From: a virus
Lineage: Duplodnaviria > Caudoviricetes
Reading direction: 5' to 3' (one strand)
DNA length: 64,000 bases
Virus record (IMG/VR): IMGVR_UViG_3300020037_002731
Location: 20,352 to 84,351 of that record
The notes under the pieces are model-generated. The model worked only from the letters and a program-made list of their open reading frames with translations, made no database searches and was not told the DNA's origin. The stretch's first letter is position 1; every line of letters begins with the position of its first letter. Positions 911 through 49,595 of the stretch are shown piece by piece. The translations under genes were made by a program, and so were the position numbers.

Positions 911-1993
911 TTAATTTTTAGGAATTACTAAACCATACTTTGCTGTAAATTGAGTATTACCATTTTTAATACTAACCCCATCTTTACCAATAGTTAAATC
1001 TATTCCGCCTTCTTTGTGTGTAGGATAGCCTTTTAAATCTTTAATTACTTTCCATTTACCTCCTTTAGTAAAGGCTGTAGCTAATCCTTTTTCAGCTTTT
1101 AATTTACCTTTGCAATCTATTTCAAGTAAACCTTCTTTTTCTAACTCTCTTATTTTAGCTTCTACATCAGATTCTTGTACTTCTGTAACTGTTTGTTTTG
1201 CAGTTGATTGTATAATAGATTTAACAAAGAATGTAACCCAGTTTGAATCCTTATTAAGTAACTGTAAAAATGAGCTTTGCTTAAAAGATTCATCATATTT
1301 ATTATGAATATCTTGTAATTTATTTTCAAGTGTATTATTAAATTTCTTATACCAATCTTCTTGAAATTTATTAAACTTTTCATTAGTTCCTTCTGAAATA
1401 CCTTCTTCATATGGTCTTACTCCATATTTCTTCTCAAATTCATCTCTTAGAGTATAATGTTTATCTATTCCGCCATCTTCAGTTAAAAGATTATAGTTTT
1501 CATTAAATAAATTTACTATTTCAGGAGTTAGATTAATAGTTCCAATAAGTTTACCATTAACAGATTTTCTATATCTTACTTCTTGTAATTGTCCAAAATC
1601 AAAAATCTTTTGGTCTGATAAGTCAATATCAGGTTTATCACTAATTTCATATACATAAAAAGTTCCTGTTTGAGGATGATTAGAAGCACTCCAGTTACCC
1701 ATTAAGGCTGCTCCAATAGATTTACTCGCTGAGGTTTCAGGTATTTGAGATTTCTTAAATCCACCATATTTAGAGGTAACTAATCTATGTTTACCTTCAT
1801 AATCTTCTACTTGTTCAGTAAAAGAAGTGGGTAAAAATCCAGTTTCATTTCCTAAATCAACATTAACTACTCTGTAAAACTTATTAGGTTTTGATACAAG
1901 AGATTGCTTATTAGCTAATGGTTTAGCAATTTGCTCTACAAATTCTTCTTTAGAATCATAGGTTACTCCTTTATATATATACTTACACGCCAT
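911..1993 (-). CDS. Polyvalent-type module protein with a putative R-S-E ADP-ribosyltransferase-like domain
   Basis: 360-aa ORF with FYRV...TSASKS...FYVYEI...QEVRY. The C-terminal THKEGGIDL resembles HEQGGI in the 940-aa cargo protein. Confidence 0.55.
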   Translation of the reverse strand: MACKYIYKGVTYDSKEEFVEQIAKPLANKQSLVSKPNKFYRVVNVDLGNETGFLPTSFTEQVEDYEGKHRLVTSKYGGFKKSQIPETSASKSIGAALMGNWSASNHPQTGTFYVYEISDKPDIDLSDQKIFDFGQLQEVRYRKSVNGKLIGTINLTPEIVNLFNENYNLLTEDGGIDKHYTLRDEFEKKYGVRPYEEGISEGTNEKFNKFQEDWYKKFNNTLENKLQDIHNKYDESFKQSSFLQLLNKDSNWVTFFVKSIIQSTAKQTVTEVQESDVEAKIRELEKEGLLEIDCKGKLKAEKGLATAFTKGGKWKVIKDLKGYPTHKEGGIDLTIGKDGVSIKNGNTQFTAKYGLVIPKN

Positions 1994-2712
1994 TATCTAT
2001 TATGTTTTTTAAAACTTCTATTTATTTGTTGCACTCCAGATTTAGAAATCCCATATAAAGGAGCTATTTCCTTATACATTTTACCTTGTTTTATAAGCTC
2101 AATTATTTCATTTCTTTGAGCCTCTGTCAATTTTTGTTTAGGAGAAATCTTATTGGTTCTTCTGGTTAAATGTTTTTCTTCCTCTTTTACAATATAATCT
2201 GGAATATTTTTCCAACTTCTATGAGCTTTAATTTCAGATATTGTAGTAATACCTACTTTATACTTTTCAGCAATTTCTTTCAAAGAGATATTAAAGGCAA
2301 TCATCTTCTTAATATCATAAATATCTTCTATTGGTATTTTAGAATTAGTTTGTCCTTCATTATAAAGCTTAATTCTTGTCTTAGACATTTTATCAATAGT
2401 AGAAGAATCAAATTCTACACAGTCTCCTCCTGTAGTTAAATTTAATCCATTAATATTATTACCTCTAAAACTGTCAAATTCCTTAACATATTTCTTTTCT
2501 AAAACATTAAGTTCCTCTCTTGTAAAATTTCCCTTTTCAACAATTTCAAAAGAATGATTTTCTACTCCATGTTTTAAAAAAGACCTATATAATAGAATTT
2601 GAGCCTTACAATTTAATTCTTTATATCTGTTAAGTCTATATTCAACATCTTTAGATTGTCCAATATAGATTTTATTAGTAGGGGAAATAACTTTATAAAT
2701 TCCTGATTTCAT
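1993..2712 (-). mobile_element. Free-standing GIY-YIG homing endonuclease with C-terminal HTH repeats
   Basis: GIYKV...KIYIGQS...R motif and two HTH-like segments. The true start is probably ATG 2712 because the track start (2745) overlaps the promoter -7 box. Confidence 0.88.
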
Positions 2713-2731
2713 TTTTAGTATATTTGAACTA

Positions 2732-2763
2732 CAAAGATACAACATTAATTTGTAATTTCCAAA
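2732..2763 (-). promoter_or_regulatory. Bacteroidota sigma70-type promoter for the GIY-YIG gene
   Basis: Minus strand TTTG-N20-TATCTTTG, matching the -33 TTTG / -7 TAnnTTTG consensus. Confidence 0.8.
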
Positions 2764-2781
2764 TTTTATTGAAAAAAGTTA

Positions 2782-4212
2782 TTAACATTCTACTTTAAGT
2801 TCTCCACTTTTCTTTAATTGTTCAATAATAGCTTCTACATTACCTAAATTTCTTCCTTTTTGGAAAATTTCAGATTGTACTTCTAGTATTCTACGGGTTT
2901 TAGGATTTCCTTCTAGTAAGTCAGATAAATATCCTCTTGTACTAATAACTTTAGATTTATCAACTTTAGCTACAGTATCATCTATATCAGATTTCCAATC
3001 TTCAAAACCATAAGTAGCTCCTCTTGCATCAAATCTTTTCTTAAACTCATCTTTAGGTATAGTAATTACTTTATCAAAGTCAGACATTCTTTCTTTAAGA
3101 ATATTAGTGTTTGAAACAAATAACCTTTTACCTTCTTTTTTAGCTTGTAATTTTAATCTATCAAATAGATTAAGCATAAATTCATTATACTCTTTAGGTT
3201 TTCTACCTTTATATTCTTGTCTTGTTTCAGAACTTCTATTAGTATCTATAAAAGCAATTACTTCATTTGCATAATCATCATCTAAACTAATAAAATCATT
3301 ATTTCCTTTTTGTTTTAAATAACTTTTACCAATAGTAGGATGTCCAAATATTATTTTATCATTTTTTGTTATAGGATTATATTGAGCAGTTTCACTGTTT
3401 AAAAAATCATCTTCTTCTTTCCAACCAACTATTTTGTTTTCTTTATCATCACTTCTAAACCATCCAATACCATTTTCAGTACTAAATTGAGCATGTCCTT
3501 TAATACTTGGAATAATATCAGGAATTCTTATTTCATTTTCAGTGTAATTAGTACCTCCTGGAACTGTTAGATTAGAGTAATAGGAAGTAGGCTCACTATA
3601 TAAATATTCTTCTTCTCCATATTCTTCTCCAGTATCTATATCTCTAAAAGAAGATTTAGTACTTTCTTTATTTAAAGCAGTATTAATTTCAACACTATAT
3701 CCATAATTAGCTAATAAAGAAGCTATTAATTCTCCTTTACTCATACCTTCAGAGTAAGTATCTTTTAATAATTGAATTTGTTGAGAACTTGCACCTTTAA
3801 GATCATTTAAAAATCCTTGAAAGTTCTTACCAGGCTCTCTAACTTTATTGGAGCTAAGTAAGTCTATTATTCTTAAAGAATAATTAACTTCATCTGAATC
3901 TTCTACATTAGCAAATAATACTCCTTGTAGTTCTTTAGATACTGGTAATACATCAACACTTAACTTATGCCTTCCTGGAGCTTCAGTTTGAATACTAGCT
4001 ACTTTAGCACCTAATTTCTTATTAGTACTTGATACAAAATTATAAGCTGCCTGAATATTATTTTTCAGGGTGTATAATTTGTTATTGAATTTTCTAAAAG
4101 CTTTACTATCTACAGCATCTTGAAAGACCTGTACATGAATTTCTGATAACCTTTCTTTTTCAGTTTCAGAAATTTCTTCTTTTTCTATATAATTAAATTT
4201 ACAGTTTACCAT
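2782..4212 (-). CDS. Large-polyvalent-protein-type module with an inserted P-loop NTPase/kinase domain
   Basis: PGGTNYTE...GHAQF...GWFRSD and RILEVQSEIFQKGR flank a GHPTIGKS Walker A region. Confidence 0.65.
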   Translation of the reverse strand: MVNCKFNYIEKEEISETEKERLSEIHVQVFQDAVDSKAFRKFNNKLYTLKNNIQAAYNFVSSTNKKLGAKVASIQTEAPGRHKLSVDVLPVSKELQGVLFANVEDSDEVNYSLRIIDLLSSNKVREPGKNFQGFLNDLKGASSQQIQLLKDTYSEGMSKGELIASLLANYGYSVEINTALNKESTKSSFRDIDTGEEYGEEEYLYSEPTSYYSNLTVPGGTNYTENEIRIPDIIPSIKGHAQFSTENGIGWFRSDDKENKIVGWKEEDDFLNSETAQYNPITKNDKIIFGHPTIGKSYLKQKGNNDFISLDDDYANEVIAFIDTNRSSETRQEYKGRKPKEYNEFMLNLFDRLKLQAKKEGKRLFVSNTNILKERMSDFDKVITIPKDEFKKRFDARGATYGFEDWKSDIDDTVAKVDKSKVISTRGYLSDLLEGNPKTRRILEVQSEIFQKGRNLGNVEAIIEQLKKSGELKVEC

Positions 4213-4215
4213 TTC

Positions 4216-7200
4216 TTATATTGTTACACAATTTGGGATTTGATCATATTCTTCTTGAGTAATATTTCTTAATTCATCAGGTTCTTGTGGAATACTTTCA
4301 TAATCTATAAAATCATCTAAATCAGAAGTATTATTAGAACTTAGTACAAATACATTATTAGTAGCTCTTGACATACCTACATATTTAAGTTGCTGTCTTA
4401 ATTCTAAATCTTTAAATGCATCAATAGTATCTGCTAACAAAAGTACTTTATTATAAGTTCCACCTTGAGATTTATGTATAGTATGTGCATACCCATAATC
4501 TAAAGTTTTCTTTACAATGTAATTACCAGTTTGATTTTTTAAATCTTTCATAAAGGCTAATTGACTTTGTAATTCTCTAGCTCCAGCAAACATTTGTGCT
4601 GCTTTCTTTCTGTTGCCAGTCTTCATAGCTATTGCACCTTCTTTATTCATTGCTTCTACTTTCTGTACAAATTTAAGTACTTTATTAGGATCTTCAGTAT
4701 TATCTACAATAAATACATACTTATTACCATCCTCTGAATTTAAAGTATTTTTAAGTACAACCTGGTATCCAGAATAACTTTCATTGATACTACCAATTTG
4801 TTTATTACTCTTTTTAGCACTAAGTACTTCATAATCTCCAGAATTAATAATTAATGGTTCTCCAGTATTATAATCTATATCAAAATTATCATATCCCATT
4901 AATATATCTCCAGGTACTAATTGTTCATTAGTGTTAAATAATATTCTTCTAACTAAAGTATTGTATTCTTTAACTATTTGATTAGTACCAGATAAAATTC
5001 TAAAGAATAACTTATTCTGTTTAAAATTATCAGAAGTAAATGCTGCACTAATTATATCATTAGCTTCTTTAGTACTATCCATGTACTGTACTCCAATTCC
5101 TTTCTCATTAACTTTACTAGTATAGGTAAAGTCTTTTCCATTTCTAAGGTTAGTACTTTCTTCAAGTATAGCATTATCTCCAGTTCTTTCAACTTTAGTT
5201 AATTGAATTTGTGGATTTTGATTAGTACTAAATACTTTACTAATATTTTTCTGTCCTACAGGTTTAATTTGTCCCTTATCCCCTACATAAATAACCTTAA
5301 TATTGAGTTCTTGTATTTTCTTTTGAATAAAATCATACAAAGAATCTGATACCATACTACTTTCATCAATAATAAGTAAATCTCCTCTTTGGATTTTAAC
5401 TTTATTTTTTTGTGCAAATTCAAGATCTCTAATATCATAGTTACCTAATTCATCAAGTCTAATATCAGGAGTTAATCCAAATAATTTATGAAGAGTAAGA
5501 ACTCTAGCATTAGGATTATTAAGCTTAGTTACTGCATTAGCTCTATGTGTAGGGGCAGTATAATAAGGGTATCTATGTTGAGAAGATAAGTACTTATCAA
5601 ATAATGATATTAAAGTAGTTTTACCAGTTCCAGCATATCCTGATAAAGTAATTTCTTTATTACCAGAATTCATGAACTCTTCAAGCTTAAGTAAAGCTTT
5701 TCTTTGTTCATTATTTAAAGCAAATGGTAAGTACAATTTATATCCACTTTTAAAAGTAAATTCCATTGGATTACCTTCAATAATTTCTGGCTCTTCTTGG
5801 ATATTTGGATTAGGTAATATCTCTTCCTGTACAGTTTTTTCAGATTGTGTAATTGGTCTTATAGAATACACAAATCTACTTTGATTTCCATTTACAAAGT
5901 TTGAACTAAACTTATTATTTATTGTAAAATCCTTCCAATGCTCAAATCCTTCATTTTTTGCAAAAGTATTAAGATCTTGAGATATTCCATTAATTTTAAG
6001 ATCTATTTCTGCACCTTGTTCATCATTAGCATATCCTTGCAAGTACTCAATTTTTGCTTCTCCTATTAATTTAATTTCAATTAAAGTCCCATCTGGAAGT
6101 TTATGAGTACCCTCTGATAACTTTTCTTTTCTTATTGTAGTTGTTTTAGTTCCTGATTTTATTTTCTCAATATTATCAGATTGCATTGGTAAAGATAATA
6201 CTTTTTCTGGAGATTCCAAAACTTCAGATCCTTCAATTCCTTGAATTATTTCTGGAGAAAGAACTATAGTTTCTTGATCTTCTGGAGAAATTTCAAATCT
6301 TTCTTCAGGTATTTCTTCTTCATTTGTCTTAGGTTCTGGATCTCCTTGAATATCTTTGTATTTTTTGCTTAATTCATCACTAAGAGCTTTATTTCCCTCT
6401 GGAGTATTAATCCAAGGTTTTAAGTACTCATTACTATACAATTCTATACTAAATCTGTACTCATGTACTGGTTTGTACTCTTTAGGTAAGGAATCTTTAT
6501 TAACATTAGATCTGTAATTATTAGAATTACTTATGTAGTTTCTAATAAATTCATTCTGCAATTCTGCTGAAGTTTTTCCAGTTAATTCTTTAATAACACT
6601 TTCACTAGGATTACTTTTAGCTAATTCAGTATTTAGTTTCTGTAAATTTTGAGCTAAGTTTCTTAACATTTGAACTGGAATAAATCTCATAAATGAGTTA
6701 TTTCCAAATTCCATGTTATTCATAGCTGCTTGATAATTCAATAAATCTGTAGCAAATTGAGCTATTTCAGGATTACTTGAATGATACATTTGATTAATAC
6801 TATCAATAAATACCTCACTTAATTCTTTAGTAGGAGTTGTAGTACTATCAAATTTAAGTATATGTAAGGGAGTAGTATTACCCTTATCTCCAGGACTTAA
6901 TGGTTTTAAGTACTTAATGAATTTATTCTGTTTAAATTCAGGATACTTAAGTAAATTCTTAAACTTAGTTGTAATTAAATCTTCTGAAGTAGTATCTTTT
7001 AATTGAGTAACTAATCCTGCAAATTTTACATTAGGGTTTAGTGCTTTGTACACTTTCATCTGTAAATAAGTACTTAAATTAGCTCTTACTTTAGGAGTAT
7101 TTTTAAAAGTACTACCTTTAAGTAATGATAAAGTTTCATTCTGAATATTCCTAAACATTTCAGTTTCTTGCAAAAATAAATTTCTAGCAATATCAAGTAC

Positions 7201-10200
7201 TTTTCGTAGATTTCTTACATTATTAACAATGTTCTTTTCATTTTGAAGTAACTTAACTGTATCAAATGGATTAGGTATTGGATTACCATTTTTATCTAAT
7301 TTAGGAATAGTTAGTTCATCATATGAATTTAAGAAACTTCTTGCAGTATCAAATGAAGATCCAATAATTCTGGTTAAAGTATTAAGTCTTGATACATTAA
7401 AAGCAAAACTACTTATTTGTTGTGCTTTTATGTACATTCTTAAAGCTTTTACTTGAATCTGTAAGAACTCTTGAGAGTTTTGATCCATTTCTAAAGCATC
7501 CCATAATTCTTTACTAGTTAAATTATTAGGCACTTCCTTATTCTTAAGTTTACTCATGTAATCATTAAGCAATGGAGCTAATTCTCTAGGTTTTAAGCTT
7601 CCAGCTTTAACAATAACAGGTTGTACACTTAAAGGAGCATCACCATCTTTAATATTAATACCTAATTGATTTAAGTAACTAAATATACTTACACTTCCTA
7701 CAAGCCAATGAAATGTACTAGCCATTGGATCTTTACTATTATCAATAGTAGTACTTACCTTTTCAGAACTATAGTTATTTTTAAGGTAAGTTACATCATC
7801 AGGAGTATTAAATGTCTTATAAGTTTCTCCATTGAATTGTATATAAAACTCTGGATTTAAATCAACTCTATTCTTAGTTAAGTTAGCTCCAGTACTTTGA
7901 GCTAGTACAGCACTTCCTCTTAAAGTAGTACTTGCAGTATTATCATCCCAAGCTTTAATAAGACCATCTGGTGTAAAAATATTGTAAGTAATTTTATCTG
8001 TACCTAGTATCTTTTCTATTTTCTCTTTACTTTCTTTAGTATCATCAGTTGTACTAGCTTGTTTAAAATACTTCTCAAGTTCAGGCTGTTGCATTACTTC
8101 TTCTAACTTAATAATAAGCCTGTTATTTAAAGCACCTTGAGATTCAGGACTTCCTTTTAGTATAAAATCATCTAATGTTCCAGGAAGATTAAATTTCTCA
8201 AGAACTTGTCTTGCTGCATAATCTCTAAGATCATTAATATCTTCATACCTTTTTTGTAAAGCCTCTTTTAAGTCTCTTCTAGTTTGTTTAAATAACCACT
8301 CAAAAGAATCTTTATCATCAATGTACCATTCATTAATTTTTCTTTGAAGTTTTAACTCTTGTACCTCTTTAAGAATTTTATCATATCCTAGTTCAGTTAA
8401 AGTTTTACTTAACTCTTTCTTTACATCTAGATTATTATTTAAATACCAATCTCTGTACTCTTCCCATTTATCTTCTGTTTCTGTAGCATCTCCATAGTAT
8501 TGCTTACCATGTCTTTCTTTACTAAATATAAATAAACTATCATCATCAAAGTCTTGTCCTGCATACAAAGTTAATTGTGGAGCAGCTATAACTATATCTC
8601 CCATGTAATCAGGTAAAATATCTACTATCTTACTTCTTCCCATGAAGTTATAACCTTGAGTAGGTACTCTAAGTGAAACTACAGTATCTCCTATTTTTAA
8701 TCCTAATCTTTTAGCAGTGTACCCTGAAATAACAATTTCTCCTACTGGATTACCATTTTCCCAAGTTACTTTTAAATCTGATACTGGATAATCATTGTAC
8801 TCATCACTATTTCTTTGTGAGCTAGGTATTACTTCTCCATTCTCATCTCTAATAGTCTGATATATGATAGGAGAACCCATAGTTAATTTAGCTCCACCTA
8901 ATTTATGTTGAAATGCATCCTTAAATCCAGATAAATATATCTGTTCTAACTTCTTTCTTGTATGTGCAAGATTTAAAGTGTATTCAGGAATTCCAACAGT
9001 ATCTCTAAGAAGTTCAATCATTTGCATATCAGAAGTAGTCTCCTCTATAATATCCCTATACTTTTGAAATACATAAGATAAATCACTCTTTAAATTTCCT
9101 TGTTCATCAATTAATTGTGAACTTAAAAAATCAAAAGTATTATTTCTTAATTGTACTTGAATATCTTGAATCTCTTCTTTTAATAGATTATTTTTTTCAT
9201 TATCTAATAAACCAAAATCTATTAATTGTTGAATTTGAGTTAGCCAAGGTACTCTAGTCTTATCTTTACTCTCCTTTAGTACTTGTTCTCTTCTGTACTT
9301 TCTAGGTACTTCATATATTGTAGGATTTTCTCCTGTTATTGGAGTACTTTTTCCAAAGAATATTTTAGCTGCACTTTTAGGTACAATTAAATCTGCATTA
9401 TTATTTTGAAGTAATTTCCACCTGTTAAATCCTTGTTCTTGACCTTTCTTAGCTACCCATTCTTTACCATTCCAATATCCAGTATCCCAGGGAGTTAAAG
9501 TATAGATACTCATTTTATAGTACACTCTATTACCTAAAGTATCAAATCCAGCAGTTACATGCTTTTGAGATACAAGATCTAATGATTGTATTTCTTCTCT
9601 AGTCAAAGATACTGGATTTCCCTCTGCATCTAATTCCTCTCCATTAAGTTTCTTTAATGCAAGTTTTTGCAATTCAGTTAAAGTACCTAAAGCTTTTAAA
9701 TCTTTAAATTTACCCCTAGGACTTTGAAATACTTGAGCATCATCAGGATTTATAGGTTTCTTATAAAACTTCTTAGCTTCTTCACCTTCTGGCTTAGTCC
9801 ATTGTACTTCTCCACTTTCAATATTAACCCAAGCTTCAGTATTTTCTGTATAAATAATCTTATCATTTCCTTCTCCCATATCTTTACCACTAGCATTAAG
9901 AGAACTTTCTCTTTTAAATCTTTCAGAAAATAAAGCATTATAACTCTTTTCCCAAGTACCTAAATCTATGTACTTAAGTTGAGATAGATCTCCTTCTGTT
10001 AATTGTTGTACAGCAGAGTTATTAATAAGATTATTTAAGAAGAATTGATACAAGTATTCCTCTGTAAATTCCATTCCTTTAACCTCATGTTTCTGTATTT
10101 GAGAAAGAATATCTGCCTGGATAATAGGAAGTACAACACTTTCAAAGTGAGTATTAATATCAGCTTGAGTCTTAATTTTTTCAAATATTTCAGGATGATT

Positions 10201-13200
10201 ATTAATTACTGGTAAGTATAACCATATTGGTACAGTTACTTTACCATAATCTCCTTGTAATCTCTTGTATTCTTGAGTAAATAAGTTCTTTAAAGCTTGT
10301 ATTCCATCAGCACTAATCTTTCCTTCTTCATACAAGTTTCTAAATGGAACTGTAACTCCATAAAAAGATCTTTTATCACCTATAATACTAGGAGCAGTTA
10401 TGTAGTACCCATTTTTATCTCTATTCTGAAATAATCCATGAAGTACTCTAAGTACATCTTGAGCATCAGAATCTTTGTAAGTTTTACCTTCTTCAAAAGA
10501 ATTATCTCCTATGTAAAATATCTCCAAGTTTTGGAATCTTCCCTTTATTAAATCTGTATTATCTCCAAATAAGAAATTATTAAATTCCAGGTATTCTCCT
10601 TTCTTAGTACTTACTTTTATATTTTGAAGTGTTTCATATTTTTCAGATAACTCTTTTAATAATTGTGAATAACTACTATAAGGTACATAAGTGTATCTAT
10701 TAGTGTTATCTGAAGCTCTATAATTAGGAATAATAAAGTTCTTACTAAATTGAGCATTAGCATTAGCTATTGCTAATAATCTTCCAGATAAATTACTATC
10801 TAAGAAAGGATTTCTTATTTCTGTACTTTCTTTTGAATTACCAGTATTTTTAAATAAAATATCTTGTAACTTAATTAAATCTGCACTAGTAATATCTCCC
10901 TGTTCATTCTTTATAAGTTCTCTAAGTACTAATGAATCTTCATCTGTATTATCAAACATTACTTCTAAATAACTTTCTTCTAATTCAATACCTAAAGAAT
11001 TAAATATCTTCTTAACTACAGTACTTTTATGTAAATTTCCTTTAATAACATTACTTCCATCAACAACCCATTTATCTGATACAGGTTTATCTTCAAGGAA
11101 AGGTACTAGATTTTCTAAATTGTATTGAAGATCTTTTCTGAATTTTTCATCTTGTAATAATTTATCATCTATTACTAAGCTATAATTAGTACTCCAATTA
11201 TCAAAAGTATAAATTCCAGCATCATGTTTATTAGTTTTCTTAACAAGTACTTTCTTATCTTGAGTAAATACTGTTACATAAGGTAATCTAGCTAACTTGA
11301 ATTGATTAACAAACCTAGTTAAAAACATTTCATCCTGAAAAGTAATTCCTTGAGGAGTTTCTTTGCTGTATTTTTTTTCTGTATTTAATTTATTGTATAA
11401 AGCATTAATTTCAGGATTTTTAGTTCCTAAAGCTTTAATTGTACCAAGTACTTTATTAGCATCTTGATTAGTTAAAATACTAAGAAGTTGATTATATACT
11501 CTAGGAAAATTTACAGCAGTTTCTATTTCTTTACCATAGAAATTAACAGTGTAAATACTACTAGCTATGAAAGTTTTAATTTCAGAAGATACTCTATCTA
11601 GTGTATTTACTTCAGAATCTAATCTATCATACTCCTTCATATCCTTATCTACATCAGTATCAAAGTTTTCTTCTTCTTCTGTAATAGGATTATATCTTAA
11701 ATATTTTAAATATTTTTCAGCTTCACTTTGAACTAAAGCTTTATTATTTTTAATACCAAAGTTATACTTCTTAAATAATTTCTTTAGTTGATCTTTCTCA
11801 AACTCTGAAGTTTTAGAATTAATTAAAGCTAAATTAGATTTAGAAAAAGGATTGTATTCTTCAATTAAATCATTTATAATTGTATTGATACTCTTAGTAT
11901 TATCTAAAGAACTAGCTTTAGCAGTAATTAATGCTATTAAGTTTCTGCTCTCTTCAGCACTTAATCCACCTACTAATTTAGCTTTAACAAAGGGACTAAT
12001 AGGATTACTTTTATTAATACTTGAATTTACAAAAGCTCCTCTATCAATTTTATTGAATAAATCTATTGTCTTTACATTACCTGTAAAGAAATTAATAATA
12101 CTGTCAAATAAATCAAATATAACTTTTTTCCAAGGTTTAGGTTGATTTAATTCTTTATTATTTCTCTTATCTGCATACTCATCTGATAATTTTTCTTCAA
12201 ATACAAGATTTTCAATATCTTTTCTTGAAATAATTTTATCCTTAAGTAATTTAATTAAATCAGGTCTTTTGCTTAAAAGATCTTGTACTTCTGAATTTAA
12301 TTGTTCAGGACTGTAATTTAATTCTTTACTTTTAGCTTTTAAGTATCTTTCTTGTTCTTGAGGACTTAATACAGTACTAAATACAGCATGGAAAGCTTCA
12401 TGATCTACATCAAGATAACCCATTTTTTCTGAAATATATACTGCATTATCTCTATAAAATCCTACAGGAATTCCAATTACATTCAACTGATCTAGTACTC
12501 TTTCTATTCTTTCTATACTTATTCCTGAAGGAATTTGAGATAATAACCTAGCTCTAATTTCATCATAAGTTTTAGGTTCTGAACTTAATTGAGATTCATC
12601 AGTGTAAATTTTAGTTTTATTAAAGTCTTTATTACTTTCATTCCAATCTCTAATTAATTCTTGAATTTCTTCTGGAGTGTATCCTGCTACAATAGCACTA
12701 TCTATTATATCTTGAAGTTCTGAAGAGTATTTAGATTCTACTTTAGTTTCTTTAATATCCTCTTGTATTTCCTTTGTTTCAGTAGTTTCTTCAGATATTT
12801 TTTCTTCTTGCTGTTCATTAATAGTTTCTTGATTTAAAACTTTAGGATCAAATTTAAACAATAAAGTATAGTTCTTTAGTACTTCAGGGTTAACTCTAAT
12901 ACTAAATTGATCAATACTAGCATTTGTAGGATCAATACTTTGTCTAAAAGAATTTTCATCAATTTCTTTAATCTTATTTTTAATACTAGCATTAATAAAA
13001 TTAATAAGATCTACTTCAGTCCAATTAGTTATATCAGGTAAAATAGTTCTATTAGTAATCTTATTTCCAATACCATACCCTAAAGCTAGCTGCATTTTAT
13101 TGCCAGCTTTATCATTATGTACAAATTTAATTACATCTCCTGGTAGTGAAGCTATCCAAAAGTTAATATCATTGGTAATTAAATCAGCTTGTTCTCTTGT

Positions 13201-16200
13201 AATATTAGGATTAGCATCAATTTTAGCTTTAATGTCTTTAATGTTCTGTAAAAAATCAGTACTTGGTATTGGTTTAGCTTGAATAGGTAACCATCTTCCT
13301 AAACCATTAATAAGTTTAGCAAATACAAAGAATGATTTTCTAAATCTATTATCTTTATGAAATTCATACTCCTGATCTGATAAGAATGGAATACCAGTCA
13401 TATCTTTACCATTAATACTTTGAGTTCTAGATACTTCAGATACTATAGGAGAATCTTTAAAAGCACCTTCAAATAATGTAGAATCTAGATCTATAGAAGG
13501 TTCATCCCTTGGTATCCATGATACTTCTCCACTTAAATCAAAATCTACTGCTCCTTTAGGTAATGGTACTTCTGGTAAATTTTGAGTACTAAACCACTTA
13601 ACTAAATCATCATTAAATCTCTTTAATAAATCCCAATTAGCTTTAAATGTATCAAGTTCTGATTGAGTAAAAGGTTTACTTCCTAACTTTTCATCATAGT
13701 TACTAAATACTCTATTAAATTCAGTTAGAGTCCATTTAGCATCATTAAAATCTATAGTAACTCCATTAGCATCTACAAATAAATTAGGATTATTTATTCC
13801 AGTAATATTTCTTCCTTCTTCTGGTACTTCTCCTGTTTCTGGATCTGTAATATCTAAAAGAATATCTATATCATATCTACCTTGGAGTTTAATTTCTTTA
13901 TTTCCAAATAAAGTTCTTTGACCATTTTTTTGTTCTTCTTCAAGATTAGCATTAACTTGTGATTTATTTACTTTAATACTAACATAATCTTTCCAGTTAG
14001 GAAGTTTAGCTATTTTATTAATTAATTCTTTAGTTTTAGCAGAAAATCCTCTATTACTTGCATACCCTTGAAACCACATTCTAGTAAAATGGTTTTCTCC
14101 ATAAAGTACTTGCTTAGTTCCTTTATTAATATTAGTTTTACCTGGCTCATAGTACCCATTTTCTTCAGTATAAGTATTACCTTTTTCATCTTCCCATACT
14201 CCTTGAGGATTTACTTTTACTTTAATTTTACTTCCAAGTACTCCTTGTTTTTCTATTGTAATATCAAAAGAGTCTGTAACTATAGGAGGTTGAGGAGGAG
14301 TAGGTGGTGTTGGAGGTTTTTCTTCAACCTTTACTTCAGGTTTAGGAGGATTTTGTTTAGTTTCAATCTTTTCTAAGTTCTCTTTAATACCTTTCTCTGA
14401 AGTTAAATCATTGTAAGCTTTAGTATATATCTCTCTTCTTTTATTTAATTTAATAATATCATTAACACTTTCTATTAAATGTTTATGATGTACTGGATTA
14501 GTATCTTTAATTTCCTGATTTGTAGCTTCAATATATTCTTCTTTACCTTTTTTATCCAAGGTATTAAAATAAATATTATTAAAACTAACTCCAAAAGAAT
14601 TTAAATCAGCATTAATCTTTAGTATTCTATTATTAGTATTATCTAATGAACTAGCAGTATGAGTAGCTAAGTTCTGTAATTCTTTAAAAGTTAAGTACTT
14701 AGCAGTATCTTTCTTTTGATCATAAGGATTAGGTAAATTTAGTAGTACTGCATCATTAACTTTCTTAATATTATTAATTTCTTTAACTAAAGAATTTATA
14801 GTATCATTACTGTCCCATCTTTGAGTATCTGCTATAGTAACATCATTACCAAAAACTTGATTTAATTCCTCTGCACTAGCATTTTTTAATGAATTAACTC
14901 TATCTATTAAAATACCTAAAGTTCCAGCTTGTAAATTCTGTTGAACTAAAGATACTATAGAACTATGTCTATCATTGAAATAATTAAATTTATCTCTGTT
15001 AGTTATAGCCTCATCAGCTAATTGTTGATAAGTTAAAGTTCTATCAGTTTCTAATAACTTATTTTTCATAACCTCATTTAATTGAGGTAACATCTTATTA
15101 GCAAAATCTAACTGAAATTTCTTTCTTTCAGCATCACTTTTAGCATTTCTAAAATGTCCTAAAGTTCCTGCACCACCACCTATTAAACCTCCAATTACAG
15201 TACTTTCTAGCCCTTCCTTGGTAGTTAATCCATCATACAAGGCTTTACCTATACTTTCAAATATATTAGCATTATTACCATTGTACTTATTATCTAAGTA
15301 ATCATTAATGGCTGCATTACTAGCAAACTGTAAATATTCTTGACCTCCTTCTGTAACAATACTTTCAGTTACAGGATTTTTAACTTTTCTAAAAGCTTTA
15401 GCATACTTACTTCCAGCATCTTCTATTAATTTACCATCTTTTAGTACAGTCTTAAGTCCTGCTTCTACATCATTAGCTCCAGGTCTAATTAAATTCTTGA
15501 AGATAAAAGTATTAGTAGGAGCTAGTACTGCCATGTTAATAGCAAAGTTAGCTAAACTACCAGAGTTAGCTATTTCTTCTTTTTGAGCATCACTTAAATC
15601 ATTTCTATCTTTTAATGTTTCAAGAATTTGATCTTTAGTTTGTCTAGCTTCTAAGGAACTTTCCATAGTAGCCATAATAGTACCTAAAGTTAATTGAGCT
15701 TTAAGATTAGGACTTATTGTATTAATACCTTTACTAGCTGCTTGTACTGCTGCTTCAGCATCTTTAAATTTAGTTCCTACTGAAGCTGCTTTACCTAAAT
15801 TAAAAGCTTTAGTTAATGCTGCACCAGTTAAAAAACTTCCTGCTGTATAACCAGCACCACTTAATAAAGCATCAAGAAAATGTCCTGAAGCTAAGTTTTC
15901 ATAACTAAAGAAATTACTATCTTTTTGAGCTTGTGATTGATATACTTTAAAAGTATCTTGAAACCAGTTATTAATAGGATCTACTACTCCTCTGGATATT
16001 TCATTATCAAATATTTCAGATAGTCCATTTACATAAGCAGTTTTAGCTGATTTACCTTTAGTCAATTCATCTATTTGTACAAATGGAACTTTTAAAGCTC
16101 CATAAAATATAGCTGGAATTTCTAATGCTGCATTTAAAGCACTACCAGCAAAATGCATACTTGCATTTCCTAGTACATCCCAATTACTTTGATTACTATG

Positions 16201-16422
16201 CCTAATATCATCTCTTAAAAATCCAGACATTAATCCATAATCTAAACCATAAGGTTTTAAATTATTAAACTCTCCATACTTTCCTATATTTTCAGATAAG
16301 TTAGGTAATACTTTACTTCCAGGACTAGGTGAACCTACAAACCCATCTCCAACTAAAGAAATATCTTTAGGAAAAGAATCTGTATTATTTTTATTTAGAT
16401 TAATTGTTGTTGGAAATCCCAT
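4216..16422 (-). CDS. Virion RNA polymerase polyprotein, 4068 aa (crAss-type RNAP core + HExxH zincin + ASCH-like + C-terminal RecD/Dda-like SF1B helicase)
   Basis: RVPTQ (~8670) and GQDFDDDSL catalytic DxDxD (8539-8553); HEAFH (12388-12402); IKSGTKTTTIR; GYAGTGKT (5617-5640), IIDESSMV, HKSQG and YVGMSRA. Located in the crAss cargo locus. Confidence 0.88.
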   Translation of the reverse strand: MGFPTTINLNKNNTDSFPKDISLVGDGFVGSPSPGSKVLPNLSENIGKYGEFNNLKPYGLDYGLMSGFLRDDIRHSNQSNWDVLGNASMHFAGSALNAALEIPAIFYGALKVPFVQIDELTKGKSAKTAYVNGLSEIFDNEISRGVVDPINNWFQDTFKVYQSQAQKDSNFFSYENLASGHFLDALLSGAGYTAGSFLTGAALTKAFNLGKAASVGTKFKDAEAAVQAASKGINTISPNLKAQLTLGTIMATMESSLEARQTKDQILETLKDRNDLSDAQKEEIANSGSLANFAINMAVLAPTNTFIFKNLIRPGANDVEAGLKTVLKDGKLIEDAGSKYAKAFRKVKNPVTESIVTEGGQEYLQFASNAAINDYLDNKYNGNNANIFESIGKALYDGLTTKEGLESTVIGGLIGGGAGTLGHFRNAKSDAERKKFQLDFANKMLPQLNEVMKNKLLETDRTLTYQQLADEAITNRDKFNYFNDRHSSIVSLVQQNLQAGTLGILIDRVNSLKNASAEELNQVFGNDVTIADTQRWDSNDTINSLVKEINNIKKVNDAVLLNLPNPYDQKKDTAKYLTFKELQNLATHTASSLDNTNNRILKINADLNSFGVSFNNIYFNTLDKKGKEEYIEATNQEIKDTNPVHHKHLIESVNDIIKLNKRREIYTKAYNDLTSEKGIKENLEKIETKQNPPKPEVKVEEKPPTPPTPPQPPIVTDSFDITIEKQGVLGSKIKVKVNPQGVWEDEKGNTYTEENGYYEPGKTNINKGTKQVLYGENHFTRMWFQGYASNRGFSAKTKELINKIAKLPNWKDYVSIKVNKSQVNANLEEEQKNGQRTLFGNKEIKLQGRYDIDILLDITDPETGEVPEEGRNITGINNPNLFVDANGVTIDFNDAKWTLTEFNRVFSNYDEKLGSKPFTQSELDTFKANWDLLKRFNDDLVKWFSTQNLPEVPLPKGAVDFDLSGEVSWIPRDEPSIDLDSTLFEGAFKDSPIVSEVSRTQSINGKDMTGIPFLSDQEYEFHKDNRFRKSFFVFAKLINGLGRWLPIQAKPIPSTDFLQNIKDIKAKIDANPNITREQADLITNDINFWIASLPGDVIKFVHNDKAGNKMQLALGYGIGNKITNRTILPDITNWTEVDLINFINASIKNKIKEIDENSFRQSIDPTNASIDQFSIRVNPEVLKNYTLLFKFDPKVLNQETINEQQEEKISEETTETKEIQEDIKETKVESKYSSELQDIIDSAIVAGYTPEEIQELIRDWNESNKDFNKTKIYTDESQLSSEPKTYDEIRARLLSQIPSGISIERIERVLDQLNVIGIPVGFYRDNAVYISEKMGYLDVDHEAFHAVFSTVLSPQEQERYLKAKSKELNYSPEQLNSEVQDLLSKRPDLIKLLKDKIISRKDIENLVFEEKLSDEYADKRNNKELNQPKPWKKVIFDLFDSIINFFTGNVKTIDLFNKIDRGAFVNSSINKSNPISPFVKAKLVGGLSAEESRNLIALITAKASSLDNTKSINTIINDLIEEYNPFSKSNLALINSKTSEFEKDQLKKLFKKYNFGIKNNKALVQSEAEKYLKYLRYNPITEEEENFDTDVDKDMKEYDRLDSEVNTLDRVSSEIKTFIASSIYTVNFYGKEIETAVNFPRVYNQLLSILTNQDANKVLGTIKALGTKNPEINALYNKLNTEKKYSKETPQGITFQDEMFLTRFVNQFKLARLPYVTVFTQDKKVLVKKTNKHDAGIYTFDNWSTNYSLVIDDKLLQDEKFRKDLQYNLENLVPFLEDKPVSDKWVVDGSNVIKGNLHKSTVVKKIFNSLGIELEESYLEVMFDNTDEDSLVLRELIKNEQGDITSADLIKLQDILFKNTGNSKESTEIRNPFLDSNLSGRLLAIANANAQFSKNFIIPNYRASDNTNRYTYVPYSSYSQLLKELSEKYETLQNIKVSTKKGEYLEFNNFLFGDNTDLIKGRFQNLEIFYIGDNSFEEGKTYKDSDAQDVLRVLHGLFQNRDKNGYYITAPSIIGDKRSFYGVTVPFRNLYEEGKISADGIQALKNLFTQEYKRLQGDYGKVTVPIWLYLPVINNHPEIFEKIKTQADINTHFESVVLPIIQADILSQIQKHEVKGMEFTEEYLYQFFLNNLINNSAVQQLTEGDLSQLKYIDLGTWEKSYNALFSERFKRESSLNASGKDMGEGNDKIIYTENTEAWVNIESGEVQWTKPEGEEAKKFYKKPINPDDAQVFQSPRGKFKDLKALGTLTELQKLALKKLNGEELDAEGNPVSLTREEIQSLDLVSQKHVTAGFDTLGNRVYYKMSIYTLTPWDTGYWNGKEWVAKKGQEQGFNRWKLLQNNNADLIVPKSAAKIFFGKSTPITGENPTIYEVPRKYRREQVLKESKDKTRVPWLTQIQQLIDFGLLDNEKNNLLKEEIQDIQVQLRNNTFDFLSSQLIDEQGNLKSDLSYVFQKYRDIIEETTSDMQMIELLRDTVGIPEYTLNLAHTRKKLEQIYLSGFKDAFQHKLGGAKLTMGSPIIYQTIRDENGEVIPSSQRNSDEYNDYPVSDLKVTWENGNPVGEIVISGYTAKRLGLKIGDTVVSLRVPTQGYNFMGRSKIVDILPDYMGDIVIAAPQLTLYAGQDFDDDSLFIFSKERHGKQYYGDATETEDKWEEYRDWYLNNNLDVKKELSKTLTELGYDKILKEVQELKLQRKINEWYIDDKDSFEWLFKQTRRDLKEALQKRYEDINDLRDYAARQVLEKFNLPGTLDDFILKGSPESQGALNNRLIIKLEEVMQQPELEKYFKQASTTDDTKESKEKIEKILGTDKITYNIFTPDGLIKAWDDNTASTTLRGSAVLAQSTGANLTKNRVDLNPEFYIQFNGETYKTFNTPDDVTYLKNNYSSEKVSTTIDNSKDPMASTFHWLVGSVSIFSYLNQLGINIKDGDAPLSVQPVIVKAGSLKPRELAPLLNDYMSKLKNKEVPNNLTSKELWDALEMDQNSQEFLQIQVKALRMYIKAQQISSFAFNVSRLNTLTRIIGSSFDTARSFLNSYDELTIPKLDKNGNPIPNPFDTVKLLQNEKNIVNNVRNLRKVLDIARNLFLQETEMFRNIQNETLSLLKGSTFKNTPKVRANLSTYLQMKVYKALNPNVKFAGLVTQLKDTTSEDLITTKFKNLLKYPEFKQNKFIKYLKPLSPGDKGNTTPLHILKFDSTTTPTKELSEVFIDSINQMYHSSNPEIAQFATDLLNYQAAMNNMEFGNNSFMRFIPVQMLRNLAQNLQKLNTELAKSNPSESVIKELTGKTSAELQNEFIRNYISNSNNYRSNVNKDSLPKEYKPVHEYRFSIELYSNEYLKPWINTPEGNKALSDELSKKYKDIQGDPEPKTNEEEIPEERFEISPEDQETIVLSPEIIQGIEGSEVLESPEKVLSLPMQSDNIEKIKSGTKTTTIRKEKLSEGTHKLPDGTLIEIKLIGEAKIEYLQGYANDEQGAEIDLKINGISQDLNTFAKNEGFEHWKDFTINNKFSSNFVNGNQSRFVYSIRPITQSEKTVQEEILPNPNIQEEPEIIEGNPMEFTFKSGYKLYLPFALNNEQRKALLKLEEFMNSGNKEITLSGYAGTGKTTLISLFDKYLSSQHRYPYYTAPTHRANAVTKLNNPNARVLTLHKLFGLTPDIRLDELGNYDIRDLEFAQKNKVKIQRGDLLIIDESSMVSDSLYDFIQKKIQELNIKVIYVGDKGQIKPVGQKNISKVFSTNQNPQIQLTKVERTGDNAILEESTNLRNGKDFTYTSKVNEKGIGVQYMDSTKEANDIISAAFTSDNFKQNKLFFRILSGTNQIVKEYNTLVRRILFNTNEQLVPGDILMGYDNFDIDYNTGEPLIINSGDYEVLSAKKSNKQIGSINESYSGYQVVLKNTLNSEDGNKYVFIVDNTEDPNKVLKFVQKVEAMNKEGAIAMKTGNRKKAAQMFAGARELQSQLAFMKDLKNQTGNYIVKKTLDYGYAHTIHKSQGGTYNKVLLLADTIDAFKDLELRQQLKYVGMSRATNNVFVLSSNNTSDLDDFIDYESIPQEPDELRNITQEEYDQIPNCVTI

Positions 16423-18173
16423 TATTTTATACTTAAGTTTCCTGTTTGAGGATTAATGAAATATATTTTTGATTTTTTTGTATCTGTATTAGTTACTCTA
16501 TAACTTCCATCTAATAACTCTTCTGAAGTATATCTTCCAGGACTAGCTCCTGATTGAGAATTACTTGGAATTTCAAATTCATTATAAGCAAATCCATCTT
16601 TATTAATATTAGGACTTTGAGAGGCTCTTAATATTCCATTAGCAAAGTATTGTGGAGCTTGTCTAGCTGTAATAGTAGGAGATTGAATAACTTTAACTAT
16701 TTGCCCTCCATTGTCTATAGCTACTTCTGTACTACCATATTCATGAGGAGAAAATACATCTTCATAAGTACCAGAGTAACTTACAGGCTTTCCTTTAAAT
16801 GTACCTACAAATTCTTTACCAGTGTATATTTTTCCACTTTCATCTGCATAAGAGAAATTAGAAGCTAATCCATCACCTACCATTCCTTTACCATCACTAC
16901 CTGGAAAGAAAGCTTCATTATAATTTTTTCTATAAGGAGAGTTAAGATTAGGTATAACTAAAGAACCTTGTACTGTAGCATTTTGTCTAAAATTTAAGTA
17001 ATCAGACACACCTTTAGTTTTTTCTTCTTCAGTATTCCAATTATCTTGTATAAAGCCTCTATTTTTAGCAGCTTGTTCTAAGTTTTTATAACCTTCAGTA
17101 TTTACATCTAAAGTATCATTATCTTCAAATATATTCTTAAATATTGCTGTAGCTAACCATTGAAGCCCACCAGACATTCCTACTACTCCAGGAGTTTCAT
17201 TTAAATCTTTCTGAAATGATCCATGAGTTCTGATTTTACCATCTGAACTTACATAATAAGGAGATTCTCCTTGAATCTTACTTCCTGGTTGAAATATACT
17301 TCCTGGGATTAAAGGACTTTCTTTTTCTTCAAACTCTTTATTTAATCTTGCATACCCTAAACTTCTTCCAGTGTAATCAAGTTTATTAATTGCATTTGAA
17401 TAACTAAATTGTGAAGACCTAGCTCTATCAGCTACCCACTCTTCAAATGTTTTATCTGTATTTCCATTATATTGTTCAAATCTATGATCTTTAGCCATTT
17501 GTTGATAAGCTTCAGAACTTAATCCAGATAAAAACATTGAGCCTATTCTATCATCACTAACTATCCCACCTTTTCCATCAGTAGCAAATCTGCCTGTAGT
17601 ATTATCAATAAAATCTCCATTTACAAAAGATACTCCCATATCTCCTATATCCTTTAAATTATCATGAAATTCTTTATTATAATCATAATAAGGATCTATA
17701 CTAGGAGGAAGTTTTAAAGTATTAGCTACACTTGTATCTCCCATTTGATACCTTTTAACAGCATCTAAATAGTCTAAAGCATTTTGATCTCTATAATCTT
17801 TACCTAATTTTTCTACATTCTTTTGGTACTCATTAAAAGCATTAGTTCTTTGGATAGCTCCATACACTTCTTTATCATTACTAAATGTACTTCTTAATCC
17901 TCTTAATTTATTTTGAGTAACTGGATCATCTAACTTTCCTGAAACCAAATCATTCATTCCTTGTACTAAAGAATTTACTTTGTTTATTTTATATTCTGTA
18001 TCTGGATTAAATACTGTTGCATAGTTTCCTTCTGTATTAAGAAAATCTTGTCCAGAATTTATAATATCCTGAATTCCAGCATCTTTCATTAACCCAACCT
18101 TAAATGCAGCTTCAAGTGGTTTGTGTACATATTGTGTTGGAGTTATAGCTCCACTGTATCTTGATGTAGCCAT
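16422..18173 (-). CDS. Ejected/cargo virion protein (crAss cargo locus)
   Basis: 583 aa, between the cargo-1-like gene and the RNAP gene. TAATG stop/start overlap with RNAP. Confidence 0.6.
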   Translation of the reverse strand: MATSRYSGAITPTQYVHKPLEAAFKVGLMKDAGIQDIINSGQDFLNTEGNYATVFNPDTEYKINKVNSLVQGMNDLVSGKLDDPVTQNKLRGLRSTFSNDKEVYGAIQRTNAFNEYQKNVEKLGKDYRDQNALDYLDAVKRYQMGDTSVANTLKLPPSIDPYYDYNKEFHDNLKDIGDMGVSFVNGDFIDNTTGRFATDGKGGIVSDDRIGSMFLSGLSSEAYQQMAKDHRFEQYNGNTDKTFEEWVADRARSSQFSYSNAINKLDYTGRSLGYARLNKEFEEKESPLIPGSIFQPGSKIQGESPYYVSSDGKIRTHGSFQKDLNETPGVVGMSGGLQWLATAIFKNIFEDNDTLDVNTEGYKNLEQAAKNRGFIQDNWNTEEEKTKGVSDYLNFRQNATVQGSLVIPNLNSPYRKNYNEAFFPGSDGKGMVGDGLASNFSYADESGKIYTGKEFVGTFKGKPVSYSGTYEDVFSPHEYGSTEVAIDNGGQIVKVIQSPTITARQAPQYFANGILRASQSPNINKDGFAYNEFEIPSNSQSGASPGRYTSEELLDGSYRVTNTDTKKSKIYFINPQTGNLSIK

Positions 18174-18174
18174 A

Positions 18175-20997: not shown

Positions 20998-21065
20998 GGT
21001 AAGAAAATAAAGAATATTATATAAACGGGTAAATATAATAAAAAAGGTTATCAATAGATAACCCT

Positions 21066-45173: not shown

Positions 45174-45246
45174 ATTTTATTTGTATATTTATTTTTATAT
45201 TATGTTTTGTATCAATATAGTAAGGTTAAACCTTACTTAATAACTA

Positions 45247-46389: not shown

Positions 46390-46476
46390 ATTTGTCTATT
46401 TAAAAAATTTTATATTTATCTATCTTGATCTAAAATACTTTACACATAATATTTAATGTGTTATAACTAAGGAATA

Positions 46477-46508
46477 TAAATATACAAAAAGTATTTTAAT
46501 ATTCCAAA
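46477..46508 (-). promoter_or_regulatory. Bacteroidota-type promoter for scaffold-MCP
   Basis: TTTG-N20-TATATTTA. Confidence 0.6.
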
Positions 46509-46518
46509 TATCTAACTT

Positions 46519-49245: not shown

Positions 49246-49309
49246 TATGTATCACTTGTTTTGTTATACTTTATTGATTTATAAATATAAGTAAAATTTT
49301 CCACATTAT

Positions 49310-49567
49310 TTAATCATGAGGATATTTAAGATCATGAGTTAATTCTGGATAGATCTTTTCATTAATCTTTTTCTGCTCTTCTATATCACAAGATGATATT
49401 AATTCCTTGTTTCCATTTTCATCTATATGCTCTACTGTACAAAAATCAAGTTCTCCCAAATAATCTACATCAGGAAGTAACTCATCTAATCTTAATCTAA
49501 TTTTATCTAAGTAATTAGTTATAGTTAATTTAAGTTGAACTAATTCCATTGGATCTATCTTTCTCAT
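49310..49567 (-). CDS. Hypothetical protein
   Basis: 85-aa ORF between TerL and portal. Confidence 0.5.
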   Translation of the reverse strand: MRKIDPMELVQLKLTITNYLDKIRLRLDELLPDVDYLGELDFCTVEHIDENGNKELISSCDIEEQKKINEKIYPELTHDLKYPHD

Positions 49568-49595
49568 AATTTCTATTTTTCTTTAATTTAAATTT

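Follow-up and report, generated by a model that had tools for sequence, protein, structure and literature searches.

A predicted virion RNA polymerase of a divergent crAss-like phage carries an SF1B helicase on a variable enzyme tail

The window analyzed here is a 64,000-nucleotide stretch (positions 20,352 to 84,351) of the IMG/VR virus record IMGVR_UViG_3300020037_002731. In it, one open reading frame (ORF) of 12.2 kb on the minus strand encodes a 4068-residue protein in which a core resembling gp66, the RNA polymerase (RNAP) of phage phi14:2, is followed in frame by an ASCH-fold module and a superfamily 1B (SF1B) helicase. By sequence comparison, the conserved body of this protein consists of a gp67-like part, a zincin-like module and the gp66-type core, and a variable tail begins after residue ~3400. 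We read the ORF as the virion-packaged RNAP of a divergent crAss-like phage, that is, as a polyvalent cargo protein with a variable enzyme tail whose helicase would aid early transcription, and we hold this reading with about even confidence. Judging from database searches, fusion of such a polymerase to a helicase is common rather than rare, and it is experimentally unstudied; what appears to be novel here is the placement of an ASCH module before the helicase, and the occurrence of the fusion in an environmental lineage far from the classified crassviruses.

Results

The gene comprises the following features (aa, amino acids):

4216-16422, minus strand: putative polyvalent virion RNA polymerase cargo protein, a single ORF of 4068 aa in a frame without internal stop
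14323-16245, minus strand: N-terminal region, aa 60-700, homologue of phi14:2 gp67 with Gly/Ala-rich amphipathic stretches
14284-14316, minus strand: Pro-rich linker PPTPPTPPQPP, aa 703-713
12574-14283, minus strand: middle region, aa 714-1283, conserved in close relatives and of no recognized family
12013-12573, minus strand: zincin-like module, aa ~1284-1470, with HEAFH at 12388-12402 (aa 1341-1345) and Glu1367 at 12322-12324
6223-11925, minus strand: gp66-type two-barrel RNA polymerase core, aa ~1500-3400, with RVPTQ at 8656-8670 and the catalytic DFDDD at 8539-8553
6199-6330, minus strand: acidic Pro-rich linker before the accessory tail, aa 3365-3408, where homology to the RNAP relatives stops
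5845-6198, minus strand: YqfB-like ASCH-fold module, aa 3409-3526, with K3426, T3429, R3431 and E3491; absent or replaced in near relatives
5761-5844, minus strand: acidic linker between the ASCH module and the helicase, aa 3527-3554
4330-5760, minus strand: Dda/RecD-like SF1B helicase, aa 3555-4031, motifs I-VI intact, Walker A Lys3601
4219-4329, minus strand: acidic C-terminal tail, aa 4032-4068, ending in ...IPNCVTI

The polymerase core

The preliminary description of this DNA had proposed a gp66-type RNAP on the strength of the motifs RVPTQ and DFDDD, and profile comparison upheld this assignment. RVPTQ (aa 2585-2589) and DFDDD (aa 2624-2628) are separated by 34 aa, exactly the spacing found in phi14:2 gp66 between RIPNQ (residue 1322) and DFDID, which validates the motif as an RNAP marker. 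R2585, P2587, Q2589, D2624, F2625, D2626 and D2628 are invariant in nine homologues. A profile (A1) of nine sequences, namely the 4068-aa protein and eight homologues, matched phi14:2 gp66 (PDB 6VR4) with E = 5.4e-12, and sub-profiles aligned aa 2100-2500 with gp66 residues 838-994 (E = 3e-10) and aa 2500-2900 with residues 1271-1617 (E = 1e-17). The nine-sequence profile was needed for this match, as a single-sequence phmmer search of the PDB missed 6VR4, and PHROGs returned no family for the polymerase part. Cargo and RNAP-associated proteins of crAss001 (gp45-gp50) are present in virions (PMC10172136), and we infer by analogy with the phi14:2 and crAss001 homologues that the 4068-aa protein is likewise packaged in the virion and ejected.

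The C-terminal helicase

The helicase anticipated at ~4330-5760 from motifs I, II, V and VI proved to be motif-complete, with motifs I (GYAGTGKT, 3595-3602), Ia (APTHRAN, 3623), II (IIDESS, 3684), III (VGDKGQIKPV, 3713), IV (KVERT, 3743), V (HKSQGG, 3983) and VI (GMSRAT, 4016) all recognizable. Pfam assigned it to AAA_30 (E = 8.7e-26; 91.3 bits, cut-off 27), with additional matches to UvrD_C_2 (34 bits, cut-off 27.4) and PIF1 (34.9 bits, cut-off 25.9), PHROG 325 ('Dda-like helicase') matched the same region with E = 8e-81, and comparison with T4 Dda (PDB 3UPU; E = 5.6e-19, ~28% identity) covered residues 41-458 of 459, so that Pfam, PHROG and structure database agree on a RecD/Dda-like enzyme. 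The SF1B helicases Dda, RecD2 and Pif1 have an established 5'-3' polarity.

Relative to the closest relative, at ~90% nucleotide identity, the ratios of nonsynonymous to synonymous substitution rates (dN/dS) were 0.07-0.11 (helicase), 0.16 (RNAP) and 0.2-0.4 (N-terminus). The helicase is therefore the most constrained part of the gene and is under strong purifying selection (dN/dS about 0.1), which argues that it is functional, although it is split into two frames in that relative (L003, discussed below). It is also the sole AAA_30 helicase of the 84-kb source record, and the same confinement of AAA_30 to the RNAP protein holds in the genomes of cr50_1 and cr118_1. The helicase is 52-59% identical to that of phages whose polymerases can barely be aligned with the one described here; this pattern would fit either vertical inheritance with repeated loss or horizontal movement between polymerase genes.

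We also observed that 12 of 14 small ASCH-module proteins (alignment A2) have a Cys as their last residue or only a few residues before it, and that the 4068-aa protein likewise has a near-terminal Cys in its final residues (...IPNCVTI, window positions 4219-4240). This Cys might serve crAss cargo modules in common as a signal for packaging or processing.

The ASCH module and the cassette site

The segment LPMQSDNIEKIKSGTKTTTIR (aa 3411-3431, nucleotides 6130-6192) lies in a region (~5850-6200) that had been described as ASCH-like, and structure prediction bore out this fold. An AlphaFold model built on 15 relatives reached a predicted local distance difference test score (pLDDT) of 88.5, and structure search with this model returned YqfB (9kyf_A; Z = 9.7, root-mean-square deviation 2.3 Å over 91 residues), followed by PH0355 (Z = 8.4) and an ASCH protein of L. 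crispatus (Z = 7.5), the top 12 matches all being ASCH proteins. The top 14 Foldseek matches were likewise all ASCH (probability 0.66-0.99). At the sequence level, Pfam at E ≤ 10 gave no family for aa 3396-3530, and hence no match to the Pfam ASCH model, and a word-index search found no small stand-alone ASCH relatives. A HMMER scan of 1.84 billion representatives recovered 73 relatives, mostly within giant, largely RNAP-bearing proteins. In this family, K3426 and E3491 are invariant, T3429 and R3431 are conserved in at least 90%, and the K-x-x-T-x-R spacing is that of YqfB, in which Thr24, Lys21 and Glu74 form a catalytic triad, Arg26 provides the oxyanion hole, and mutation of these residues abolishes or severely reduces activity (PMC6972931). 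The pairing of K3426/T3429/R3431/E3491 with YqfB K21/T24/R26/E74 is one of spacing and conservation. Because these putative counterparts of the YqfB catalytic residues are conserved, an enzymatic role is likelier than the RNA-binding role that had been suggested for the module; most likely, the modeled domain would be a separate, optional enzyme, a deacylase of the N4-acyl-cytosine type with RNA or DNA as its substrate.

The optional nature of the module is apparent from its distribution. Among 38 giant proteins with this ASCH module, the polymerase motif was found in 27 and the helicase in 6. Where ASCH and helicase co-occur they are direct neighbors, 4-50 aa apart, and in 10 of 11 cases the helicase precedes ASCH, an order that is reversed in the 4068-aa protein. 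In four other metagenomes, contigs of close relatives span the helicase and the end of the polymerase but leave nucleotides 5833-6114 uncovered. In contigs of two studies (runs X2 and X7), position 5826 is followed, after 1 or 10 added nucleotides, by position 6188, a net change of -360 or -351 nucleotides that keeps the frame open and removes precisely the ASCH module. The preliminary description had treated ASCH and helicase as one unit, a view that does not survive the 6-of-38 co-occurrence and the existence of near-identical phages that join RNAP to helicase directly.

A third arrangement is seen in the closest relative, L003 (JGI metagenome, ~90% identical), which carries a different, 1.3-kb insert at the same site (17132-18452), which includes a NADAR gene and a truncated cpYpsA-like start; run X7 also contains this insert junction. 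ASCH, no insert and NADAR-containing insert are thus three states of one cassette site, in relatives that are ~90% identical where measured. In other giant polymerases, the modules adjoining the helicase include an AlkB-like oxygenase, ART-PolyVal, NADAR and cpYpsA. Together, these alternatives after aa ~3400 mark the region as a cassette site. The homologous gene of L003 (6401-20061) runs through frames 2/3/1/2, and its helicase follows the polymerase past a stop and is split over two ORFs, with a 1-nucleotide difference at the break; the broken frames could be an assembly error or real decay.

Prevalence of the polymerase-helicase fusion

By the preliminary description's own account, its reading would fall if the architecture were common and already described in crAss RNAPs. 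The first half of this proved true. Using aa 3400-4068 as the query against proteins of 2237-7119 aa, we found at least 1477 giant proteins with a homologous helicase (all but 20 of the candidates that were scored). Among the best 120 of the 1477, the helicase was C-terminal in all 120 and RxPxQ-34 aa-D[FY]DxD lay upstream in 115, so that the fusion is widespread in public phage genomes. Membership of some clusters of such proteins runs from hundreds into thousands, with contigs ~100 kb long. Two reference Suoliviridae genomes also encode it: cr50_1 gp059 (YP_010110216, NC_055868; 4774 aa) is annotated solely as 'DNA helicase' and cr118_1 gp14 (YP_010110531, NC_055872; 4946 aa) solely as 'exonuclease V', and in both HEAFH, the RNAP motif and the helicase are in frame. 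Given its presence in these genomes and in the databases, the architecture is already public, hidden beneath helicase-only names. As to the second half, our literature search on crAss RNAP-helicase fusions found no paper describing one, though a figure in an earlier crAss paper could still show the helicase. Yutin 2021 lists an 'SF1 helicase' among conserved genes; the fusion is absent from the text, and the supplements yielded nothing.

N-terminal half

A profile of aa 60-700 matched residues 65-751 of phi14:2 gp67 (E = 1.1e-21), which is annotated as a virion protein from tandem mass spectrometry proteomics. The description of this region as membrane-type fared poorly: it is Gly/Ala-rich and amphipathic, and its highest 19-residue Kyte-Doolittle windows score 1.1-1.3, under the usual value for a transmembrane helix, so that no clear membrane helix is discernible. 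The Pro-rich linker expected at ~14280-14350 is present, at nucleotides 14284-14316, and the middle region that follows shares 52-91% identity with relatives P0002-P0005. Pfam at E ≤ 10 returned no family for the N-terminus, aa 714-1220 or the HEAFH region.

In the zincin-like module, H1341, E1342, H1345 and E1367 are invariant across 9-10 homologues, as expected of a gluzincin HExxH with a downstream Glu ligand, and HEAFH is shared with the cr50_1 and cr118_1 fusion proteins. The model of the region (pLDDT 74) gave lethal-factor-like, PPEP-2/3, PprI and ArdC proteins as top folds, with Z scores of 4.3-5.6 that are weak and within background, and Foldseek returned nothing at E ≤ 0.001. The predicted zincin is thus borne out as an invariant signature at 12388-12402, but the weak fold match stops short of proving a zincin. 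As a separate observation, aa 1428-1567 of relative P0004 (L006) show a weak YkuD (L,D-transpeptidase) match, under the Pfam cut-off, that falls in an insertion of ~320 aa preceding the zincin region; the polymerase protein may have a second variable slot there.

Genomic context

The ORF is uninterrupted, as had been noted, and tightly packed between its neighbors: its ATG shares one nucleotide with the stop of the upstream gene (TAATG), and the downstream neighbor begins 3 nucleotides past its own stop. The window has a G+C content of ~28%, and every gene lies on the same strand. PHROG and Pfam matches of the neighbors place the ORF in a crAss-type block of cargo and structural genes, in agreement with its earlier placement among virion cargo genes:

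18175-21054, minus strand: upstream gene with a Crassvirus cargo protein 1 domain (PF25725, E = 8.8e-8, 32.8 bits, cut-off 27)
21098-25303, minus strand: 1401-aa virion structural protein (phrog_15100, E = 4e-69)
43704-51782, minus strand: crAss-type major head protein (phrog_11589, 1e-66), portal (phrog_6547, 3e-110) and large terminase (TerL; phrog_6681, 6e-78)

The best matches of TerL are to Crassvirales at ~30% identity, with Suoliviridae on top, and by these comparisons the phage is crAss-like and very divergent, far from all classified Crassvirales. Megablast with the whole gene and tblastn with aa 1975-3141 gave no matches among GenBank phages, because the polymerase is too diverged. 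The source record of 84 kb has a CheckV completeness of 48, i.e. it is about half complete, which hints at a full genome well above 100 kb. Close relatives come from activated sludge, sediment, wastewater and rhizosphere metagenomes of 12 studies, not from gut samples. Also among the cargo genes is a GIY-YIG homing-endonuclease-like gene with a C-terminal helix-turn-helix (window 1993-2745, minus strand); in L003 and L004, too, GIY-YIG genes are found just behind that for the polymerase.

Comparison with known systems

Among the closest characterized counterparts is phi14:2 gp67-gp66-gp65, which resembles the present system in its profile matches (gp67, 1e-21; gp66, 1e-17 and 5e-12), its catalytic spacing and its setting among virion and cargo genes. 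The two differ in that the gp67-like and gp66-like parts are fused into one polypeptide in the 4068-aa protein. Moreover, the HExxH motif of phi14:2 is on gp65, after the polymerase, whereas here it precedes the polymerase, with no detectable similarity between the two, and phi14:2 has neither an ASCH tail nor an SF1B helicase in its genome. The gene neighborhood recurs in crAss001 gp44-gp50, where a large virion structural protein is followed by cargo protein 1, another cargo gene and then the RNAP genes (PMC10172136), but the RNAP-associated functions are split over gp47, gp49 and gp50, and there is no AAA_30 helicase.

The cr50_1 gp059 and cr118_1 gp14 proteins share HEAFH, RIP(A/T)Q...DFDID and a Dda-like helicase near the C-terminus in one frame; their helicases, the only AAA_30 helicase in each genome, are 40% and 32% identical to that of the 4068-aa protein, respectively. 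In contrast, their polymerase parts cannot be aligned with it past the catalytic motif, they gave no ASCH match in BLAST comparison, and they come from human gut, unlike the sludge, sediment, wastewater and rhizosphere relatives of this phage. T4 Dda itself, a replication-accessory protein of 439 aa, is synthesized after infection and acts free, whereas the helicase described here forms the tail of a 4068-aa protein that is presumably packaged. For the ASCH module, the best structural match is YqfB (E. coli N4-acetylcytidine amidohydrolase, PDB 9KYF), whose K-x-x-T-x-R spacing and Glu have putative counterparts in the module, but identity is only ~15%, the module has no match to the Pfam ASCH model, and its family is narrow (73 representatives).

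At a broader level, polyvalent proteins (Iyer et al. 2017, PMC5512222), including the N4 virion RNAP gp50, combine a zincin-like peptidase and a polymerase with shuffled enzymes near late or virion genes. The 4068-aa protein, which is presumably delivered, has the hallmarks of this class, namely unrelated enzymatic domains, tails shuffled among relatives and a virion-gene neighborhood. The survey differs from the present case in featuring T7-like N4 RNAPs, SF2 (SNF2-type) helicases and a UvrD-like helicase in plasmid proteins, and the terms 'crAss', 'Dda', 'SF1' and 'ASCH' are absent from its text.

Discussion

The architecture described here raises the question of what a helicase might contribute to a virion polymerase. 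In vitro, gp66 transcribes single-stranded or denatured DNA, not double-stranded M13, and QDE-1, a structural relative of gp66, requires the QDE-3 helicase and RPA (bioRxiv 10.1101/2020.03.07.982082). Because gp66 needs single strands, QDE-1 needs a helicase together with RPA, and the SF1B polarity fits, we propose a role in transcription, in which the helicase would act on the phage's own entering DNA and boost early transcription by the tethered polymerase. Running 5'-3' along the non-template strand, it would share the polymerase's direction of travel and hand the polymerase the single-stranded template that gp66 needs in vitro; early transcription would be enhanced in this way but would be possible without the helicase. 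We advance this specific role tentatively, at somewhat less than even confidence. The autonomous machine for unwinding and transcription envisaged in the preliminary description likewise stays hypothetical. An extended version, in which the tethered helicase frees the virion polymerase from its single-strand need while the exposed strands feed ASCH, NADAR and AlkB-like base-modification erasers, would make the protein an injected transcription and genome-cleaning unit present in a sizeable minority of crAss-like phages. This putative unit would loosely resemble the eukaryotic complex of the ASCC3 helicase, ALKBH3 and ASC-1 (ASCH), and we regard it as unlikely.

Several observations weigh against a transcriptional role of the helicase. 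Dda-like helicases load via a 5' single-stranded tail, for which no source is apparent here. At E ≤ 0.001, AAA_30 helicases are absent genome-wide from complete phi14:2 and crAss001, as well as from five of seven complete Suoliviridae genomes and seven of nine complete reference crassviruses overall, and presence is mixed even within subfamilies (cr50_1 with the helicase, cr10_1 and cr55_1 without; cr118_1 with, cr114_1 without). None of the eight proteins sharing the polymerase region has the helicase as part of its chain; those whose polymerases are 55-60% identical end in other modules (e.g. cpYpsA), and no helicase was present in the 1.6-8 kb of downstream flank that was read. In L003 the helicase is called as separate ORFs behind a stop. 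Lastly, gp66 transcribes early genes in vivo in phi14:2, whose genome has no AAA_30 helicase. Judged by these gene contents, the helicase is dispensable for gp66-type RNAPs in general. With the helicase missing from most relatives, it would be at best an enhancer or a host-specific accessory, and patchiness of this kind is expected of host-specific accessory or counter-defence modules.

This patchiness, which extends inside subfamilies, would suit the main alternative, in which helicase and ASCH are independent injected effectors that ride on the polymerase for delivery and protect or repair the genome or disarm defences, with no part in transcription; one possibility is that the helicase removes host proteins or bares single strands on which ASCH, NADAR and AlkB-like enzymes would erase modifications inflicted by the host. 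Such effectors would explain why the tail slot is filled with unrelated enzymes (cpYpsA, NADAR, an AlkB-like 2-oxoglutarate oxygenase, ART-PolyVal and ASCH) and why the cassettes vary among ~90% identical phages, and zincins combined with DNA-acting enzymes, helicases included, are known in phage and plasmid polyvalent proteins (PMC5512222). The adjacency of ASCH and helicase, at 4-50 aa when they occur together, points the same way, but the two are mostly apart (both in 6 of 38 ASCH giant proteins). No defence system is known to be countered by a Dda-like helicase, and in the ten phage records searched for AAA_30 this helicase type was seen on the polymerase protein alone, whereas a generic effector might be expected on other cargo proteins too. 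We therefore consider this alternative possible, if rather unlikely. A different fate for the helicase is release: the giant protein might be cleaved, perhaps by its own zincin, so that the freed enzyme serves as an ordinary phage Dda in replication, recombination or fork clearing, the fusion merely giving it an early presence. Cleavage is what Drobysheva et al. expect of polyproteins that fuse gp65, gp66 and gp67 (bioRxiv 10.1101/2020.03.07.982082), acidic, Pro-rich linkers lie on both sides of each tail module, the helicase aligns over nearly its full length with T4 Dda and is the only SF1B helicase of the 84-kb record, and L003 has it as separate ORFs. Yet cleavage of the protein is hypothetical, most crassviruses replicate without such a helicase, and with a record about half complete (CheckV 48) the phage's own replication helicases may lie outside it, all of which makes release quite improbable.

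An error of assembly or a frameshift that joins separate genes is the least credible explanation of the fusion and in our view can be given very little weight. It could appeal to the L003 region, which lies in several frames with a stop between RNAP and helicase, and to the ASCH cassette, which no contig of four runs spans and whose junctions in the window are without independent read support there. However, an open frame of 12.2 kb at 28% G+C is not attainable by chance, independent contigs of two other studies have RNAP and helicase in frame, and the same order in one frame recurs in hundreds of independent assemblies and two RefSeq genomes. In 27 further giant proteins that bear an RNAP, a homologous ASCH module occupies the equivalent place in the tail, which speaks for the cassette as well.

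A virion-packaged polymerase with a variable enzyme tail, as we read the 4068-aa protein, bears on three aspects of crAss-like phage biology. In annotation, the labels 'DNA helicase' and 'exonuclease V' on proteins of 4,700-4,900 aa hide a polymerase and distort gene-content comparisons. How a single-strand-dependent crAss virion polymerase starts on a duplex genome is an open problem, for which an attached and selectively maintained helicase gives a direct test; its patchy distribution limits the claim, in that the helicase would not be a general answer to the duplex start. Finally, the polymerase tail is a fast-changing cassette site and, as such, a good place to seek new effectors of early infection.

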